Shown piece after piece: positions 6,825 through 23,983 of a DNA stretch of 64,000 nt (its first letter is position 1; each line of letters starts with the position of its first letter). The stretch spans positions 21,169 through 85,168 of the IMG/VR virus record IMGVR_UViG_3300046810_000466. One strand, given 5' to 3'. The stretch comes from a virus. The translations under genes were made by a program, and so were the position numbers. The notes beneath the pieces were generated by a model. That model was not told the DNA's origin. It saw only the letters and a list, made by a program, of their open reading frames with translations, and made no database searches.

Positions 6825-8087
6825 TTAGAGGGATGGTGCATGACCGCCCATCAGGGCTTTCAGGATGTCACCGATGTCAGGACCGCTACCTTTGTTCGAC
6901 GCCTTCAGGTCCTTGATGCGGACGGTGGTTGGCATCGCGATGTTGCGGTGGTAGAAGGTAACGTTGTTGTAGTCGACTTCGTCCACGACCGCCATCATCA
7001 TCAGCGAGGTCTGTTTGAACATGCGCTGACGGATGTCGAACTTCGCCAGCTTGCCTTCCAGTTGCAGCTCGAGCTGTTCGGCGGTGTCCTTGGTGATGAC
7101 CACCATGTTGGTGGACGACGCGATGGTTGGCGAACCGGATACCAGGGTCGACAGTTTGTTGTTCAGGTTGGTGCGGCCGATGTTACCCAGTGTGCCGGAC
7201 GGATCCTTCAGCAGATCGGAGCGGTGTTTGTCCACCAGATCGTTGCACAAGACCAGGTCTTTCCAGAACGACAGGCGACCGGACTTCCAGCCGTGCCAGC
7301 GCTCTTTGAACGAGTTGTCTTCGCTGCCCGTGGCTAAAATATGAATCAGATCCGGACCTGGCAGGACCGAAGCAATCAGGCGGATGTTCACCTGGACTGG
7401 CAACGAACGCTTGCCGTCGGAGATCTGGATCTCGTACGACTTACCAACTGACAGGTTCGCCAGTTCGGTCATGGTGCGGCCGATGTCTGCTTTCGAAATG
7501 GCTTCGATCTTGCCGTCGCGCATGTCAGTGCCGTTTTCGCTGACGGACAGGTTGTTGCCTTCAGCTGCATCGGCAGTGCCCATGCCACCCATGGCGCCAG
7601 CGGTATTGCCACGGCTCTTACCGCCACTGCCGACACCACCTTCGCCGGTGCTCATGCCTGGTGTTTTCTGTGCTGCGCCGCCCAAGCTACCCAGACCGGA
7701 TTCGATCGACAGGCGCAGCTTGTTGTTGGTCGGGAACGGCAGACCGTCTTCGTAGGCTTCGGTGGCAATCATCCAGGTCGACAGACCGGCGTTAACCGGA
7801 TTACGGTTCGGGTTCAGGGTGTCGAGGCGGTCGATCACACGGATGTTGCCCATGACGTTGGACAGCGACGCTGCTTGCAGGTAGTAACCAGCGAAGATCG
7901 ACAGAAGGGATTGCTGTACTTCACCGATGCAGTCGAGGTGCATAGCAGCCTTTTCGATCAGCACCAGCGGCTCGACACGACCTACACTGGTGAAGTCCAC
8001 CAGCGAATCCGACGTACCACCACGACGCATGAGATCGCCTGCTCGGTTGAGGACGCTCAGTCCGGTATTCACGAGATCGCTATACAT
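6825..8087 (-). CDS. virion structural/head protein, phiKZ gp89-like
   Basis: 420 aa; 'SLVDFTSVGRVEPLVLI', 'DRLDTLNPNR', 'FWKDLVLCNDL'; IATEA/LSIES sites around a Gly-rich linker. Confidence 0.7.
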   Translation of the reverse strand: MYSDLVNTGLSVLNRAGDLMRRGGTSDSLVDFTSVGRVEPLVLIEKAAMHLDCIGEVQQSLLSIFAGYYLQAASLSNVMGNIRVIDRLDTLNPNRNPVNAGLSTWMIATEAYEDGLPFPTNNKLRLSIESGLGSLGGAAQKTPGMSTGEGGVGSGGKSRGNTAGAMGGMGTADAAEGNNLSVSENGTDMRDGKIEAISKADIGRTMTELANLSVGKSYEIQISDGKRSLPVQVNIRLIASVLPGPDLIHILATGSEDNSFKERWHGWKSGRLSFWKDLVLCNDLVDKHRSDLLKDPSGTLGNIGRTNLNNKLSTLVSGSPTIASSTNMVVITKDTAEQLELQLEGKLAKFDIRQRMFKQTSLMMMAVVDEVDYNNVTFYHRNIAMPTTVRIKDLKASNKGSGPDIGDILKALMGGHAPSL

Positions 8088-9220: not shown

Positions 9221-12166
9221 ATGGCTCTCGCAATTCAAGAAATGATCGACAACGTCACACGCTATCGCTTCAACCCGGCTAGTATCCAGCGGGTGGCGTT
9301 GCGTGGGCTGGCGGAGATCAACAATGGTCAACAGCTTTACTTCGATGCAACCAATCCGTTTATTCAAGCGCTGCAATGTGGCGCAGTAGAAACGGCAGCA
9401 TTCATGCAGTCGCACGAAGCCGAGTGCCGTCGTCGTTATCCGTGCCTGGCACAGACACAAGAAGATCTGTACCTGCATATGTCGGACCAAGCTTATATCA
9501 ATCGCTTTGCTGTTCCGGCACAAGCGAACTTCAGCTTCCGCTTCTTCAAGCCCGAGCTGGTGAACGCCATGGTCTACGATAATGCAACCGGCTATACCAA
9601 GCTGGTTATTCCTCGTAACACCTACTTCACTGTGGGTGGCACCGTCTTCAGTTTACAATACCCTATCGACGTGCGTCAGTTGGCCAATGGCGCGTTGTCA
9701 ATCGTGTATAACAACGAGCAGGTATCGCCACTGCAAACGTTGGAAAGCAACTCGATCCCTTACGAGATCCAGGATGGCGCTGAAGGTGAGTACGTCAAGT
9801 TCGATGTGCTGGCCACCCAATTCAACATCACTCAGATGGTGGAGTCCATCAGCAAAGCGAAAGACGTATCGATCGCAATGCCGATCACCGATCAGATTTA
9901 CTTTGCTCGGGTGTACCACAAGAACTCGGCGACCGGTAAATGGGATGAGCTGGCTACCACCCATGCCGCCAGTATTTACGATGCCACGAAACCAACAGCA
10001 GTCCTTCACGTTGCTGACGGGGTCTTGCAGGTGAAGATTCCGCAAGTGTATGTTCGCACTGGGCTGCTGTATTCGAATATCCGGGTGGACATGTACGAGA
10101 CCAAAGGCGCCATCAATCTGCCGCTGGCTGAGTACCCATCGAATGCGTTCTCCATTACGTGGAAAGCGTTCGACAGCTCCGAGCAGAGTAATGTCTTCTC
10201 GGCGCCATTGCCGAACATGAACGTGAATGCTTTCTCCAACGAGATCGTCATCGGCGGTCGCAATGAGATGGGGTTCGAAGAGTTGCGCAAGAACGTCATC
10301 AACAACGCGACGGGTCCTATCCACCAACCTGTTACCGAAGCCCAGTTGGAAGCACAGTTGAGGAACGCTGGTTACGACATCGTTAAAGGTAAAGACAACA
10401 TCACGGACCGTATCTACTTAGCGACCCGTGAGATGCCATCGCCTGAGCTTGTTACAGCCACCACAGCGGCCTCAACAGGCAACAAGCTACTCACGGCAGC
10501 CGCAGCCTCTATTGAGACCCTGACGGTCGCTACAGAGTCTCTCGCTGGCTTGCCTACGGTGATTGATAACGGCGACAGCATTACCATCACACCAGACACG
10601 CTTTACCAGATCGTGGACGGCATTGCACAGCCGGTACCGCAATCCGATGTAGAGAACATCTTGTCGATGCCGGCTGACAAACGCGCGTTGGCAGTGACCA
10701 ACGGTAACTTCCTTTACACGCCATTCCACTACGTGCTCGATTCATCGAATGCGTCGTTTGAGATTCGTCCGTACTACTTGGACAATCCGATGGCCACCTC
10801 CAAGGTGTTCGTCAAACAAAATGACACAACACTGATGTTGGTGGGAACGTCGTTGTACGGTCTGGTGCGCACGACGACAGGTTTCATCATGCAAGTACAA
10901 ACGCGTTCTGACGATGTCTATAAGTCATTGCCGGACAGCCAAGTGTTTGCACAGATGGCTTTCATCCCGCACGGTGAGCGGGATCGTGCCTACGTTAACG
11001 GTGTGATGGTTGGCAAGACGTCGAAAGGTGAACGGATCTTTAACTTCGATCTGTCCACCACGTTCAATGTGGACTCCAGCGACAACATGGAGATGACCAA
11101 GTTCACCATGTACAACACGGAACCTCGGATCACCAAGACCGCGTTGCTCAACTCGTTCGATGTGATCTACTCCACCTCCGTGGTATTGACGTCCCGTTGG
11201 ACGCCAAATGAAGTGGATGAGGTGTTGGGTCGTCATCTGTTGCCGAACCAGATCGCCGGTATCAACCACGAACAGATCCGGATCAAGTTCGGCGAACCAC
11301 TGGACATGCTCTGGACTCGTGCTCGCACTGTCGCTTCTTCCATCACGTACCAGGTGTGGGAGGAGGATCTGCAAGCCTTCTACAAAGAAGACGTGTTTGA
11401 GTACGGCGCTGACGGTTTGCGGTTGAGTGTGGTGGAAGGGCAGCTGGTCTATAACAAGTTGCATCTGAAAGGTGATCCGATTCTCGGTCCTGAGGAAGCC
11501 ATCACGTACGAACACCGTAAAGGTGATCTGAAACGCGATTCGTCAGGTCAGCTGATCCCAGCCAACCCACGGGGTCTGAAACGTCAGATCGACTTGATGT
11601 TGCTCGAGGGTGTGTACTGGTTCGCCACCGATGAAACGACGGCCAACTACCGCACGACATTGACCCGGGCACTGGTGTCATGGTTGGTGAACGATCTGGA
11701 GTCCTTCAAAACGGGACTGCTGGACAAGACGCGGATCTACTTCTATCCGAAGACTACCTCGGGTACGGTCAACGTTTATCTGTGGGATGATGTTCGTAAG
11801 GCTATCTCTGCTGGTCAGTCGTTCAACGTAACGTTGGCGGTGTCCAAGCAAGTGCATGAGAACCTCAACCTGCGTGATCGTCTGGAAGTGGCAACCATCC
11901 AAGTGCTGTCGACGATGCTGCAACAGAAGACCGTGTCGACATCGCAGATGCTCGAAGCGCTGCGCAAGAAATACGGCAGCGATGTTATCGACGTGCAGTT
12001 GTCAGGTCTGGGTGGTGAGTTCAACTATCCCGTGCTGACCATGGCAGATGACACCGACCGTCTGTCCATCCGTAAACGTCTGGTGGCTTTGGCCGACGGT
12101 AAGTTGGCAGCTGAAGAAGATGTTACCGTGGCTTTCGTCATTCACAAAGGCAAAAGCGCTACTTAA
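9221..12166 (+). CDS. large virion structural protein, phiKZ gp87-like (probable baseplate wedge)
   Basis: 981 aa; 'AQTQEDLYLHMSD', 'IGGRNEMGFEELRKNVI' reminiscent of baseplate wedge/J proteins. Confidence 0.7.
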   Translation: MALAIQEMIDNVTRYRFNPASIQRVALRGLAEINNGQQLYFDATNPFIQALQCGAVETAAFMQSHEAECRRRYPCLAQTQEDLYLHMSDQAYINRFAVPAQANFSFRFFKPELVNAMVYDNATGYTKLVIPRNTYFTVGGTVFSLQYPIDVRQLANGALSIVYNNEQVSPLQTLESNSIPYEIQDGAEGEYVKFDVLATQFNITQMVESISKAKDVSIAMPITDQIYFARVYHKNSATGKWDELATTHAASIYDATKPTAVLHVADGVLQVKIPQVYVRTGLLYSNIRVDMYETKGAINLPLAEYPSNAFSITWKAFDSSEQSNVFSAPLPNMNVNAFSNEIVIGGRNEMGFEELRKNVINNATGPIHQPVTEAQLEAQLRNAGYDIVKGKDNITDRIYLATREMPSPELVTATTAASTGNKLLTAAAASIETLTVATESLAGLPTVIDNGDSITITPDTLYQIVDGIAQPVPQSDVENILSMPADKRALAVTNGNFLYTPFHYVLDSSNASFEIRPYYLDNPMATSKVFVKQNDTTLMLVGTSLYGLVRTTTGFIMQVQTRSDDVYKSLPDSQVFAQMAFIPHGERDRAYVNGVMVGKTSKGERIFNFDLSTTFNVDSSDNMEMTKFTMYNTEPRITKTALLNSFDVIYSTSVVLTSRWTPNEVDEVLGRHLLPNQIAGINHEQIRIKFGEPLDMLWTRARTVASSITYQVWEEDLQAFYKEDVFEYGADGLRLSVVEGQLVYNKLHLKGDPILGPEEAITYEHRKGDLKRDSSGQLIPANPRGLKRQIDLMLLEGVYWFATDETTANYRTTLTRALVSWLVNDLESFKTGLLDKTRIYFYPKTTSGTVNVYLWDDVRKAISAGQSFNVTLAVSKQVHENLNLRDRLEVATIQVLSTMLQQKTVSTSQMLEALRKKYGSDVIDVQLSGLGGEFNYPVLTMADDTDRLSIRKRLVALADGKLAAEEDVTVAFVIHKGKSAT

Positions 12167-20881: not shown

Positions 20882-21382
20882 ATGACCCGTAAAAGCGATG
20901 GCCGGATTAAACGCGATCTGGCAGCGGCAGCGCTCGCTGACCAAAATGTCCGCAGTCCTTATCTGGACTTGGAAGACATGTACGCTACCCAGCGCCGGCT
21001 GTTCGGTCCGTACTACCAGATGGCCAAACTGATCAGCGATCCCGAAGTTTCCAAGTACCTGGTCGACATCGTCAAGACCCTGAACCTGGTACGCGGCCTG
21101 TCCGCCGACGTCAAGGATCTGCATGAACGCACCGAGGCGTTGCACACCCGTCACGCCGGCAAGACCACGATGCCTGACCTCATCAACGAAGATGAGAACA
21201 TGGACATCCTGATGATGTTCGAGAACTACAGCATGCTGTTCAACGTGCACCAGCAAACCATCGTGCCGATCCTGACCGAGCTGGACGAACACCTGCGCGC
21301 CGCACTGCGCAACAAAGAAACAGCTGAAAGCCAAACGGCGGCGCCGGTGGCAGAAGTTGAACAAGTGGCCAACCACGGCTAA
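20882..21382 (+). CDS. hypothetical protein
   Basis: 166 aa, GGAG RBS, strong codon bias. Confidence 0.7.
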   Translation: MTRKSDGRIKRDLAAAALADQNVRSPYLDLEDMYATQRRLFGPYYQMAKLISDPEVSKYLVDIVKTLNLVRGLSADVKDLHERTEALHTRHAGKTTMPDLINEDENMDILMMFENYSMLFNVHQQTIVPILTELDEHLRAALRNKETAESQTAAPVAEVEQVANHG

Positions 21383-21393
21383 CCGAGGACGAC

Positions 21394-23043
21394 ATGAGCG
21401 ATCAAGAACAAGCGCAACCTGGCGGCATTCCACAAGTGGATGATGTCGCTGGCGGTCTGCCGCAAGAATTCCATCCAGCACAACCTTACGTTCCGCCTGA
21501 AGAATTGCTCCAAAGCACCCAGGTAGCAGAACTGTCGGCGCCTGTCGACGAAGAAGCGGACATGCTGGAAGTGGACCTGCCGCCAGTCGGCGAACCGCAA
21601 GCATTCACATCCGACACTGCTGACGAGTTCAACTGGCCTGCTCCGGCACCCAACAACAACGCCACGCTCGAGATCCCGTACTCGACGCCGGTCGCGGAAG
21701 ACAAGTGGGATGACCTGGCGACAACGCTGGCAATGCCACCTGACACCGCAGCGCGCTGGATCAACTACGCTGAACAGCAACCCAATCCTGACCTGGGCAA
21801 CAACGAAAAGGGTGAAGAATGGGTCGGCGTGATCACCGATGGTCTGGGCAATGGTTCGTTCCAAGACAACATGGCGCCAGCTGCTCGCCGCGAAGGTGCT
21901 GACTACCGTCAACGCATCATGGCTGGCGATAAGATTCTGGCGATTGCCTCGCCACGCATCCATGACGACGAAGGTCCGCTGCTGACCGGAGAACGCGGCA
22001 TGCTGCGTGTGAACGCATTGCTGGGTCGCGGTGCGTTGATCCAAGTACCGCTGTGGCATTCCGGCTTCTGGATCACGTTGAAGTCGCCGGGCGAAACCCA
22101 ACTGCTGGACACCTTCCAGCGCATCATCGACAACAAGATCACCTTCGGCCGCGCCAGCAATGGACTGGCCTTTGCTAATCACGCTGTGTATACCAATGCC
22201 GCGGTGGTTGATCTGGCGATGCAATGTCTGTACGAAACCTCGGTGCAAGGTCTGAGCAGCTGGAGCGAAGTACGCACCATGATCAAGGCGCCTGACCTGC
22301 ACATGCTGGCATGGGGCCTGGCGTGCGCTGTTAACCCTCGCGGCTTCCAGTTCGAGCGTTCGTTGATCGATCCGAAAGGTCTGGCTACCACGGTGGTGCG
22401 TGAAAACCTGAATGTCGGCGCGCTGCTGTGGACTGACCGCAACAGTCTGGACGACTGGCAGATCGCCCACATGGCTCGCCGCGTCACCGGCAGCATGACC
22501 AAGGATCAGGTCAAGTTGTATGGCGATCACTTCGTGCGTGGTACACCGAAGAGTGTGCTGTTCAACGACGACCTGGGCATGACCATGCGCGTACCGTCGA
22601 TCGACGAATACCTGATCACTGGCCAGCTCTGGGTTGATGAACTGGTGGCTGCCGTGAACGAAGCCTTCACCCAGGAAACGGATCACAAGCAACGCAACAG
22701 CTTGATCCTGGATCGCGCTAAGGCAACGTCTATGCGCCAGTACTCGCACTGGATCGAATCCTTCGACTTGCCGAAATTGAACAAGAAGATGGTCGATCGC
22801 GAAACGCTGACCAAGACCTGCGCCAGCCTGTCGTCGGACAACAGCATTCGTCTGAAGTTCTACGAGACCATGAAGGCGTACATCAACGACTCGATGGTTG
22901 CGCTGATCGGTGTACCCCAAGTGCACCCTGAAGAAAGCGGCCAGGTCAAGCCTCGTTTCGAGAACATCATCCCGCTCGATCCGATCTCGGTTTTTTTCAG
23001 CCTCCTCTCCCAAAAAATCCAACAAATCCGGATGCGTCAATAG
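21394..23043 (+). CDS. conserved phiKZ gp77-like protein; putative tail/baseplate-hub assembly chaperone (short, non-shifted form)
   Basis: 549 aa, GAGGA RBS; ends '...PLDPISVFFSLL' over a G-T7-C slippery run. Confidence 0.7.
   Translation: MSDQEQAQPGGIPQVDDVAGGLPQEFHPAQPYVPPEELLQSTQVAELSAPVDEEADMLEVDLPPVGEPQAFTSDTADEFNWPAPAPNNNATLEIPYSTPVAEDKWDDLATTLAMPPDTAARWINYAEQQPNPDLGNNEKGEEWVGVITDGLGNGSFQDNMAPAARREGADYRQRIMAGDKILAIASPRIHDDEGPLLTGERGMLRVNALLGRGALIQVPLWHSGFWITLKSPGETQLLDTFQRIIDNKITFGRASNGLAFANHAVYTNAAVVDLAMQCLYETSVQGLSSWSEVRTMIKAPDLHMLAWGLACAVNPRGFQFERSLIDPKGLATTVVRENLNVGALLWTDRNSLDDWQIAHMARRVTGSMTKDQVKLYGDHFVRGTPKSVLFNDDLGMTMRVPSIDEYLITGQLWVDELVAAVNEAFTQETDHKQRNSLILDRAKATSMRQYSHWIESFDLPKLNKKMVDRETLTKTCASLSSDNSIRLKFYETMKAYINDSMVALIGVPQVHPEESGQVKPRFENIIPLDPISVFFSLLSQKIQQIRMRQ
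22992..22998 (+). other. putative programmed -1 ribosomal frameshift site T_TTT_TTC
   Basis: X_XXY_YYZ heptamer in the correct frame; the -1 frame has no stop from here to 23516. Confidence 0.7.
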
Positions 23044-23105
23044 AGAACATCGATCACGTCGCTCACCCGCTGTTCGCAGCAGAGTTACAGAAAGACCCCG
23101 AGCAC

Positions 23106-23516
23106 GTGATCGAGGCGCTCCTCGAGCAGTTGGCACCGTACTTAGAAAGCGAACCCAAGCTTACTTCGGTACAGGCGGAACAAGTCTTGCGCAAAGCTTA
23201 CTTGTTCCACTATCACTTTTCTGACGCCAACTCGTTAGCTGCACAACCCGCATCCTTGGTGCGCTTCCATTCTGCTGAAGACTCCTTCCGCGGCTCCATG
23301 ATGGAAGACCATGCAGAACATTTTGCCGATCTTGACATTGGTGACGTGTTCCGCATCTCGTGGTTGGAATACGTTTCTCTCCCTCGCCATGAAATGCAAA
23401 TCCTGCGTAACATTGCGGAGAAGATCAAGAAACGAAAAATTAGCAGCGATAACAATAGTCTAGACGAGGCCGAGAAGTTATTGCGTGCTGCTGGGAGAAA
23501 AGTGGGAGGAGGGTAA
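23106..23516 (+). CDS. conserved phiKZ gp76-like protein; probably the C-terminal domain of a -1 frameshift fusion
   Basis: GTG start without clear RBS; frame open upstream to the slippery site; 'FRISWLEYVSLPRHEMQIL' resembles chaperone extension motifs. Confidence 0.65.
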   Translation: MIEALLEQLAPYLESEPKLTSVQAEQVLRKAYLFHYHFSDANSLAAQPASLVRFHSAEDSFRGSMMEDHAEHFADLDIGDVFRISWLEYVSLPRHEMQILRNIAEKIKKRKISSDNNSLDEAEKLLRAAGRKVGGG

Positions 23517-23518
23517 TC

Positions 23519-23983
23519 ATGGCAATCCGTTATATCAGAAACTACCGCCTGGTATTCGACGATGCTCAGGTGTTGGTGTGTACGACCAACAGTGTTGGCG
23601 TCATGGGTGCGGGAGTGGCGAAGATATTTCGGGAGCAGATCCCCAAACTGTTCTATCGTTACAAAGCGCACTGCAAGAAGCATGAGCCTAAGGAAATGGT
23701 GCCGTATGTCTTCGACCGAGAATCCGGGAAGTTTGTGTACTGCCTCCACACCAAGTGGCAATGGTGGAATCCTTCGAAGCTGGAATACGTTGAGAAGGGA
23801 CTCGAGTCCTTCGTGGCTTGGTGTAAGGAGCATGATATCAAATCCGTTGCTATGCCTCCTCTGGGATGTGGTAACGGGGGCTTGACGTTTGAAGGCGGGG
23901 AGAATCCCGACGAAGACATCAAGAACGTGATGGAACGCTACCTACAAGAGCTGGATGCGGATGTGCGTATTTACTGTCCGTAG
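23519..23983 (+). CDS. macrodomain ADP-ribose hydrolase (DarG/TARG1-like)
   Basis: 'VCTTNSVGVMGAGVAKIFR', 'LHTKWQW..PSKLEYVEKGL', 'SVAMPPLGCGNGGL'. Confidence 0.85.
   Translation: MAIRYIRNYRLVFDDAQVLVCTTNSVGVMGAGVAKIFREQIPKLFYRYKAHCKKHEPKEMVPYVFDRESGKFVYCLHTKWQWWNPSKLEYVEKGLESFVAWCKEHDIKSVAMPPLGCGNGGLTFEGGENPDEDIKNVMERYLQELDADVRIYCP

Follow-up and report, generated by a model that had tools for sequence, protein, structure and literature searches.

A conserved T-run and an open -1 frame support recoding of the gp77/gp76-type gene pair of phiKZ-like jumbo phages, a candidate gene for baseplate-hub assembly

Two overlapping reading frames at the gp77/gp76-type locus

The locus described here lies in a window of 64,000 nucleotides (nt) from a virus in IMG/VR (record IMGVR_UViG_3300046810_000466, positions 21,169 to 85,168) and consists of two open reading frames (ORFs) that correspond to gp77 and gp76 of phage phiKZ. 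The upstream one, ORF A in the ORF listing (21394..23043, + strand), encodes the zero-frame short product of 549 amino acids (aa). Its codons 533-535 read GTT TTT TTC (V533-F534-F535, 22990-22998) and contain the putative slip site (22991..22998, +), a run of seven T (T7, 22991-22997) with an in-phase heptamer T_TTT_TTC at 22992-22998, 14 codons ahead of the TAG stop at 23041-23043. The downstream ORF, in the form that a gene caller would report (23106..23516, +; GTG start, 136 aa), sits in the -1 frame relative to ORF A. This frame is open from 19 codons 5' of the T-run to the stop at 23514-23516, and GTG 23106 is its first ATG, GTG or TTG in the window. On inspection of the sequence, no GGAG, GAGG or AGGA was found within the 22 bases upstream of this GTG.

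A slip at the heptamer would add 172 codons to the first 535, giving a predicted fusion of 707 aa. The -1-frame extension (22998..23516, +) comprises these 172 codons and a stop, and is predicted to encode an all-helical domain. It begins with a dual-coding overlap (22998..23043, +), in which the C-terminal helix of the short form is read in the zero frame and the start of a Pro-rich linker in the -1 frame. The stretch from the ORF A stop to the first possible start (23058..23105, +) carries, in the -1 frame, a conserved H..P.FG motif and the onset of the first helices modelled with confidence by AlphaFold2 (AF2). A preliminary description of this DNA had given the same 549-aa ORF, the same GTT TTT TTC codons, an open -1 frame and a fusion of about 707 aa, and both coordinates and sequence agree with it; its remark that GTG 23106 lacks a convincing ribosome-binding site also holds.

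Two further features overlap this region. A six-A run lies inside the dual-coding overlap (23009-23016, +), 11 bases past the T-run. On the other strand, a 585-aa ORF (21379-23136, -) is antisense to all of ORF A, and a caller that prefers the longest ORF would choose it; since ORF A has strong family support, the antisense ORF looks like the shadow ORF of a G+C-rich gene.

ORF A matched phrog_4585 end to end (E 9.8e-95) and the extension matched phrog_12109 (E 4e-18, profile positions 30-139 of 147), two PHROG families annotated as of unknown function. Pfam and NCBIfam gave nothing useful for either part, and ORF A had no Pfam match at E <= 1. The family of ORF A includes phiKZ gp77, 201phi2-1 gp136 and PhiPA3 gp074, and the notes in the 201phi2-1 and PhiPA3 records name phiKZ gp77 and EL gp47 as homologs. 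The downstream ORF corresponds to 201phi2-1 gp135 and PhiPA3 gp073 by record notes and to phiKZ gp76 by position and synteny. The gp77/gp76 numbering used in the preliminary description is right, as judged from the records of 201phi2-1, PhiPA3 and KTN4, the last of which is assigned to the phiKZ species. A tblastn search with ORF A found relatives in 176 phage records, nearly all of them jumbo phages (of Pseudomonas, Erwinia, Serratia, Ralstonia and others). No match came up when the phage collection was searched at the nucleotide level in distant mode, so searches at the protein level were needed.

A lone T7 run is ordinary in this DNA: both strands of the window together hold 10 such runs, and 9.09 are expected. 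Within the window alone the site is therefore only suggestive, and the case must rest on relatives.

The T-run and the open -1 frame are conserved among relatives

We compared 90 loci, consisting of the window, nine GenBank loci (KTN4, PhiPA3, 201phi2-1, LucasX, FLC9, CR5, SPLA10, JM-2012 and Bacillus phage AgentSmith) and 80 loci from IMG/VR, which were the 80 best of the 118 relatives found. Across the loci, protein identity to the window ranges from 27 to 59%. The main set of 87 loci comprised the 80 IMG/VR loci, six GenBank loci and the window, and the three other GenBank loci were analysed separately. The comparison covered 89 unique contexts around the site and 84 unique extension sequences.

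A run of five to nine T (T5-T9) was present 8-44 codons before the ORF A stop in all 90 loci, the distance being 8-20 codons in the main set and 20, 21 and 44 codons in the three additional loci. Run lengths in the main set were T5 in 5 loci, T6 in 11, T7 in 45, T8 in 22 and T9 in 4. Past the run, the -1 frame stayed open for 152-190 codons in every one of the 90 loci; the +1 frame had a median of 16 open codons and never reached 150. An in-phase heptamer of the form X_XXY_YYZ was found in 76 loci (T_TTT_TTT in 56, T_TTT_TTC in 19 and T_TTT_TTA in 1), and an in-phase T_TTY was kept in all 89 unique contexts. Of the 84 loci listed for this comparison, 23 have a stop in the -1 frame 0-4 codons 5' of the T-run, which pins the shift to the run itself.

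The phiKZ gp77/gp76, 201phi2-1 gp136/gp135 and PhiPA3 gp074/gp073 pairs and EL gp47 are direct homologs and show nothing different in kind; the gp77/gp76 homologs of phiKZ-like phages have the same gene order, T-run and -1 layout as the window. The alignment across relatives that the preliminary description had proposed as a check thus found the T-rich run and the open -1 frame in 90 of 90 loci. Because the site is conserved in all of these related loci, it is far beyond chance, and a -1 recoding event that joins the gp77-like and gp76-like ORFs has strong comparative support. The comparison strongly supports the view that the two ORFs are one gene with conserved -1 recoding.

The long form is probably made by ribosomal slippage

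We think it probable that a ribosomal -1 frameshift at the U-run yields the long form. Most ribosomes would read ORF A to the TAG and produce the 549-aa short form, and a minority would slip by one base in the 5' direction on the U-run T_TTT_TTC (Phe534-Phe535), where both Phe-tRNAs can re-pair. The slipped ribosomes would then translate the 172 codons of the -1 frame, giving the 707-aa long form, in which the last 14 residues, a conserved helix, would be swapped for a Pro-rich linker and a helical domain of about 150 residues. By analogy with lambda gpGT, the long form would add an extra binding domain in a fixed ratio. The efficiency of the slip is presumably low, since no stimulator was found. 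Stimulators are not obligatory for -1 sites of low efficiency, and their absence would fit a low-efficiency ribosomal slip like that of tail chaperone genes.

Several observations weigh against this reading. The loci are mutually related, so the counts are not counts of independent events. A canonical in-phase heptamer is missing in 14 of the 90 loci, which have G_TTT_TTT or only T5 and, having no such heptamer, would need single-tRNA slippage on T_TTY. Coding explains part of the T-run, because the FF dipeptide is conserved in the ORF A protein, F534 being invariant. In the window, the 126 nt past the run fold with a z score of -1.26 and no downstream RNA structure was called; across the 90 loci, the 70 nt after the run had a mean z of -0.37, versus -0.46 for a control segment inside ORF A, and a Shine-Dalgarno (SD)-like 4-mer was found upstream of the run in only 4 loci. 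The 707-aa long form is itself a product predicted from the sequence. The sequencing runs listed for this DNA were two DNA metagenomes, one of them its possible source, and no RNA run. Finally, a T-run that is variable in length and tolerant in register fits slippage by RNA polymerase equally well.

Such transcriptional slippage, in which a phage or host polymerase would add one U to some of the mRNAs and so generate the same fusion, stays a rival because the run varies in length (T5-T9) and register and because 14 loci are non-canonical; we regard it as unlikely, though not negligible. Besides the lack of a ribosomal stimulator, it is favoured by the T8-T9 runs of 27 of the 90 loci, which fall in the range where bacterial polymerases slip, and by the fact that these phages use their own multisubunit polymerases, whose genes flank ORF A. 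However, the T5-T6 runs of 16 of the 87 main loci are short for slippage by bacterial polymerases. Moreover, the extra T lies nearly always 5' of the FF codons, the wobble base ahead of the first Phe codon being T in 79 of 89 contexts against a background of 25%. A T on this side completes X_XXY_YYZ, and T_TTY is in phase throughout, whereas a polymerase is indifferent to phase. The window also holds seven other runs of T7 or longer (9/10 matches), with no apparent avoidance. The 5' bias of the extra T favours the ribosome over the polymerase, and the slip is most likely ribosomal.

The downstream ORF is most likely not an independent gene

Two independent genes could also produce the layout, with the downstream ORF initiating on its own (at GTG 23106, at a non-standard start or by re-initiation) and the T-run serving Phe-Phe coding only, but this is very improbable. 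It is how the databases present the locus, since nine of nine GenBank records annotate the gp77/gp76-type pair as two hypothetical proteins with separate coding sequences (CDSs) and no joined CDS, and both the conserved FF and the presence of a GTG at 23106 agree with it. Against it stands the codon choice at the site: all 89 unique contexts use TTT as the first Phe codon, where 28.2 would be expected from the 32% share of TTT among the remaining Phe codons of ORF A, whose median G+C across loci is 55%. The -1 frame is moreover open across the overlap in every locus, and no SD-like sequence precedes GTG 23106.

The position of possible starts also argues against self-initiation. The first possible start scatters from 10 to 154 codons past the junction in 78 of the 87 main loci and lies upstream of the junction in the other 9. 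The H..P.FG motif, 3' of the ORF A stop, is well conserved among the 84 unique sequences (H in 69, F in 79 and G in 70), and in 69 of the 87 loci there is no ATG, GTG or TTG at or before the H column of the -1 ORF, so that any start would come after the motif. The extension aligns across relatives from the junction onward; its first four residues were given no weight, because the conserved zero frame partly dictates them. The AF2 model of the extension, built from a 71-sequence alignment, has a mean predicted local distance difference test (pLDDT) score of 85.9, with 80-91 for residues 21-40, and a start at extension residue 40, that is, at GTG 23106, would cut the modelled helix 37-54.

An exhaustive profile search with the extension (E <= 0.001) found 1685 representative proteins at 50% identity. 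The best 150 of these are 97-186 aa long, and their matches begin at profile positions 2-56; 147 of the 150 proteins begin within 10 residues of the match, and 7 reach position 2. Their scattered N-termini look like arbitrary start calls inside a longer coding region. The ORF at 23106..23516 is thus most likely not an independent gene.

An in-frame fused form was found neither among 63 homologs of ORF A, which are 463-622 aa long, nor among the best 150 of the 1685 extension-family proteins. Relatives of ORF A with 686-720 aa, such as that of CR5, have a longer N-terminus and retain the two-frame layout. A search for longer proteins found none of 334-2000 aa that carries the extension, which is weak evidence in the same direction. 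The lack of in-frame fused forms suggests that both products are needed. It also argues against a homopolymer error of sequencing or assembly in this contig of a rhizosphere metagenome, in which one T more would restore a single 707-aa ORF, and we dismiss such an error as scarcely credible, since the two-frame layout recurs in all 90 loci, which come from independent isolates and metagenomes, and the zero-frame tail after the run, which forms the end of helix 530-547 in the AF2 model of ORF A, is conserved (L537 and R548 invariant, Q540 at least 90%).

A likely role in baseplate-hub assembly

The AF2 model of ORF A has a mean pLDDT of 79.3 and a predicted template-modelling score of 0.77, with residues 1-77 predicted to be disordered. 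In a Foldseek search of BFVD, the match beyond its own family was 'Baseplate hub assembly protein, bacteriophage T4-like' (E 1.6e-4, template-modelling (TM) score by target 0.51), together with 'Baseplate hub assembly chaperone', several 'Baseplate hub subunit' entries and about ten more. In all, roughly a dozen hub assembly or hub subunit entries matched ORF A, with E from 1.6e-4 to 7e-2 and TM scores by target of about 0.5. The support for a fold shared with T4-like hub proteins is moderate, since both sides are predicted models. In the Atlas, the best and sole named family for ORF A was PF12322, T4_baseplate (feature score 0.90, 19/30 hits), which covers both T4 gp26 and gp51. These two proteins are hub assembly chaperones, and gp51 is absent from the final T4 particle, according to a review of the T4 tail (PMC3004832).

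A sequence feature near the slip site may point the same way. Of 89 relatives, 50 have a CxxC motif (CPxC in 47 cases) about 20-30 residues N-terminal to the FF site, an arrangement also seen in T4 gp26, where CxxC is likewise followed by FF..LL near the C-terminus. A second Cys pair occurs about 200 residues upstream in the sequences of CR5, JM-2012 and AgentSmith. The two Cys pairs suggest a split zinc site like that of T4 gp26/gp51.

Available indications on the virion are also consistent with an assembly factor. A term search of the main text of the phiKZ virion atlas found no mention of gp77 or gp76, and in the 201phi2-1 record gp136 and gp135 are without a mass-spectrometry note, one of which is carried by each of the neighbours gp138 and gp139. 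This silence and the missing notes fit a non-virion assembly factor and are weak evidence for one. Judging from the models, the ORF A protein is probably a distant structural relative of T4 gp26/gp51, not a member of their family, and it is likely to be a non-virion baseplate-hub assembly chaperone.

A number of results count against this assignment. PF12322, like the rest of Pfam, gave no match at E <= 1 for the window protein or 23 relatives, and a PF12322 search that finds T4 gp26 and gp51 found nothing in the genomes of AgentSmith, CR5, JM-2012 and KTN4. In hhalign comparisons, the ORF A profile gave E 0.19 against gp51, 0.29 against gp26 and 0.12 against an alignment of the gp51 family. 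The ORF A protein of the window is without CxxC, its clade having lost the motif, and ORF A sits among genes of transcription and replication. Searches of the PDB with the ORF A fold reached a best E of 0.13, which is chance level; the extension fold, and sequence searches with both parts, likewise gave chance-level matches only. A scan of IMG/VR for relatives of T4 gp26 found only close T4-like ones, too few for a gp26 profile.

The preliminary description had proposed that the pair makes a tail assembly chaperone, to be checked by structure and profile comparison with T4 gp26 and gp51. The fold comparison of ORF A with T4-like hub chaperones and the Atlas assignment to PF12322 lend this some support, whereas hhalign, Pfam and every other test at the sequence level do not. 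It had also likened the extension to gp51, and this resemblance was not found: the extension profile gave E 0.35 against T4 gp51, 0.046 against gp26 and 0.37 against a 20-sequence alignment of the gp51 family. Only the upstream ORF is alike, and only at the level of fold. No relative of the extension outside its own family was detected by PDB sequence and fold searches or by hhalign against gp26 and gp51.

Alternatively, the recoding may be real and the protein may act in replication, transcription or nucleus-associated processes like its neighbours, which we consider possible though doubtful. In the window, ORF A is flanked by genes for a virion RNA polymerase beta subunit, a helicase, non-virion RNA polymerase subunits and a DNA polymerase, in the same order as in phiKZ-like records, where this synteny is kept; the failed sequence-level tests of PF12322 and the lack of a PDB match for either model also allow for such a role. 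Yet the only annotated structural neighbours of ORF A are T4-like hub assembly proteins, and PF12322 is its only named Atlas family. Furthermore, phiKZ-like genomes do not keep their genes in neat modules: in KTN4 the gp79 homolog, which is adjacent, is annotated as 'putative structural head protein', and the 201phi2-1 records of the gp79 and gp80 homologs carry mass-spectrometry notes.

Within the hub-chaperone assignment, a more specific and tentative proposal is that one recoded gene covers the tasks of two T4 paralogs, gp26 and gp51. Its short form would be a gp26-like hub chaperone, and its long form would carry a helical adaptor to bring in a hub or tape-measure component at a fixed ratio.

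Comparison with known recoded genes and with T4 hub chaperones

In lambda gpG/gpGT and P2 E/E', the gene for a non-virion assembly protein has a slippery heptamer a few codons ahead of its stop, and a -1 shift takes place there. The two products of such tail chaperone genes have a common N-terminal part, the extension has about 150-175 residues, no strong stimulator is required, and the heptamer of P2 is also T-rich. The pair described here resembles lambda G/GT, at the sequence level only, in that a -1 shift close to the 3' terminus of the first ORF is predicted to give two products. Unlike lambda G, which has about 100-150 aa, ORF A has 549 aa, and neither in the window nor in phiKZ-like records does it lie between the tube and tape-measure genes. 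Membership of the lambda G/GT family, which the preliminary description had put forward, was rejected on these grounds, since ORF A has no tail-chaperone match in Pfam or PHROG and is surrounded by genes for RNA polymerase, helicase and DNA polymerase.

Compared with T4 gp26 and gp51, ORF A is two to three times longer and has no hidden Markov model or profile-profile match to them. T4 has two separate paralogous genes, unlike the pair described here, and the helical extension has no detectable counterpart in gp51. The FF of T4 gp26 is coded TTC TTT with no slippery run, and the hhalign pairing of the two FF..LL ends was not significant (E 0.29). According to record annotation, a second product, 26', is nested inside T4 gene 26. 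In the T4 sequence (7770-7900), the start of gene 25 lies a few codons after the FF..LL end of gene 26 and one base short of where the gene 26 stop codon ends, and gene 25 is read in the -1 frame with respect to gene 26.

In dnaX (tau/gamma) and in genes with transcriptional slippage, a homopolymer-type run likewise yields two isoforms in a fixed ratio from one gene. Unlike in the gp77/gp76-type pair, the shifted product of dnaX is the shorter one, and stimulators flank its site, whereas no stimulator was found here.

Other genes in the window

A stand-alone macrodomain ORF (23519-23983, +) begins three bases after the extension stop. It matches the N-terminal half of the DarG antitoxin, a DNA ADP-ribosyl glycohydrolase (E 1.4e-36, 126 bits, below the 250-bit cut-off for full-length DarG), and could serve as a phage counter-defence against DNA ADP-ribosylation of the DarT type. 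Farther upstream, a 981-aa protein (9221-12166, +) matches phrog_3248, a family annotated as of unknown function, end to end with 1019 bits, indicating a large conserved jumbo-phage protein.

Annotation and significance

A full-text literature search, outside which supplementary proteome and transposon tables lay, found no paper describing a frameshift in the gp77/gp76 pair. No relevant passage was found in the SPN3US essential-gene paper, the phiKZ transposon preprint, the antisense-oligomer paper and the Erwinia jumbo-phage paper. The proteins called 'gp77' in papers on Goslar, PCH45 and PhiPA3 are products of other genes.

The phiKZ-like, nucleus-forming phages have been studied intensively, yet gp77 and gp76 are still hypothetical proteins in the records examined. 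If the recoding proposed here is true, hundreds of jumbo-phage annotations miss a protein of about 700 aa, the extension family alone having 1685 representatives. The long and short forms would then offer a concrete candidate for the assembly of the unusually complex baseplate hub of jumbo phages, and the logic of tail chaperones, in which a -1 shift sets two isoforms in a fixed ratio, would extend to a different protein fold. Should the tentative reading of one gene doing the work of both gp26 and gp51 also be true, the pair would be the missing G/GT equivalent of the chimalliviruses and the first frameshift-dependent baseplate-hub chaperone, old enough to be common to phages of Gram-negative bacteria and of Bacillus.

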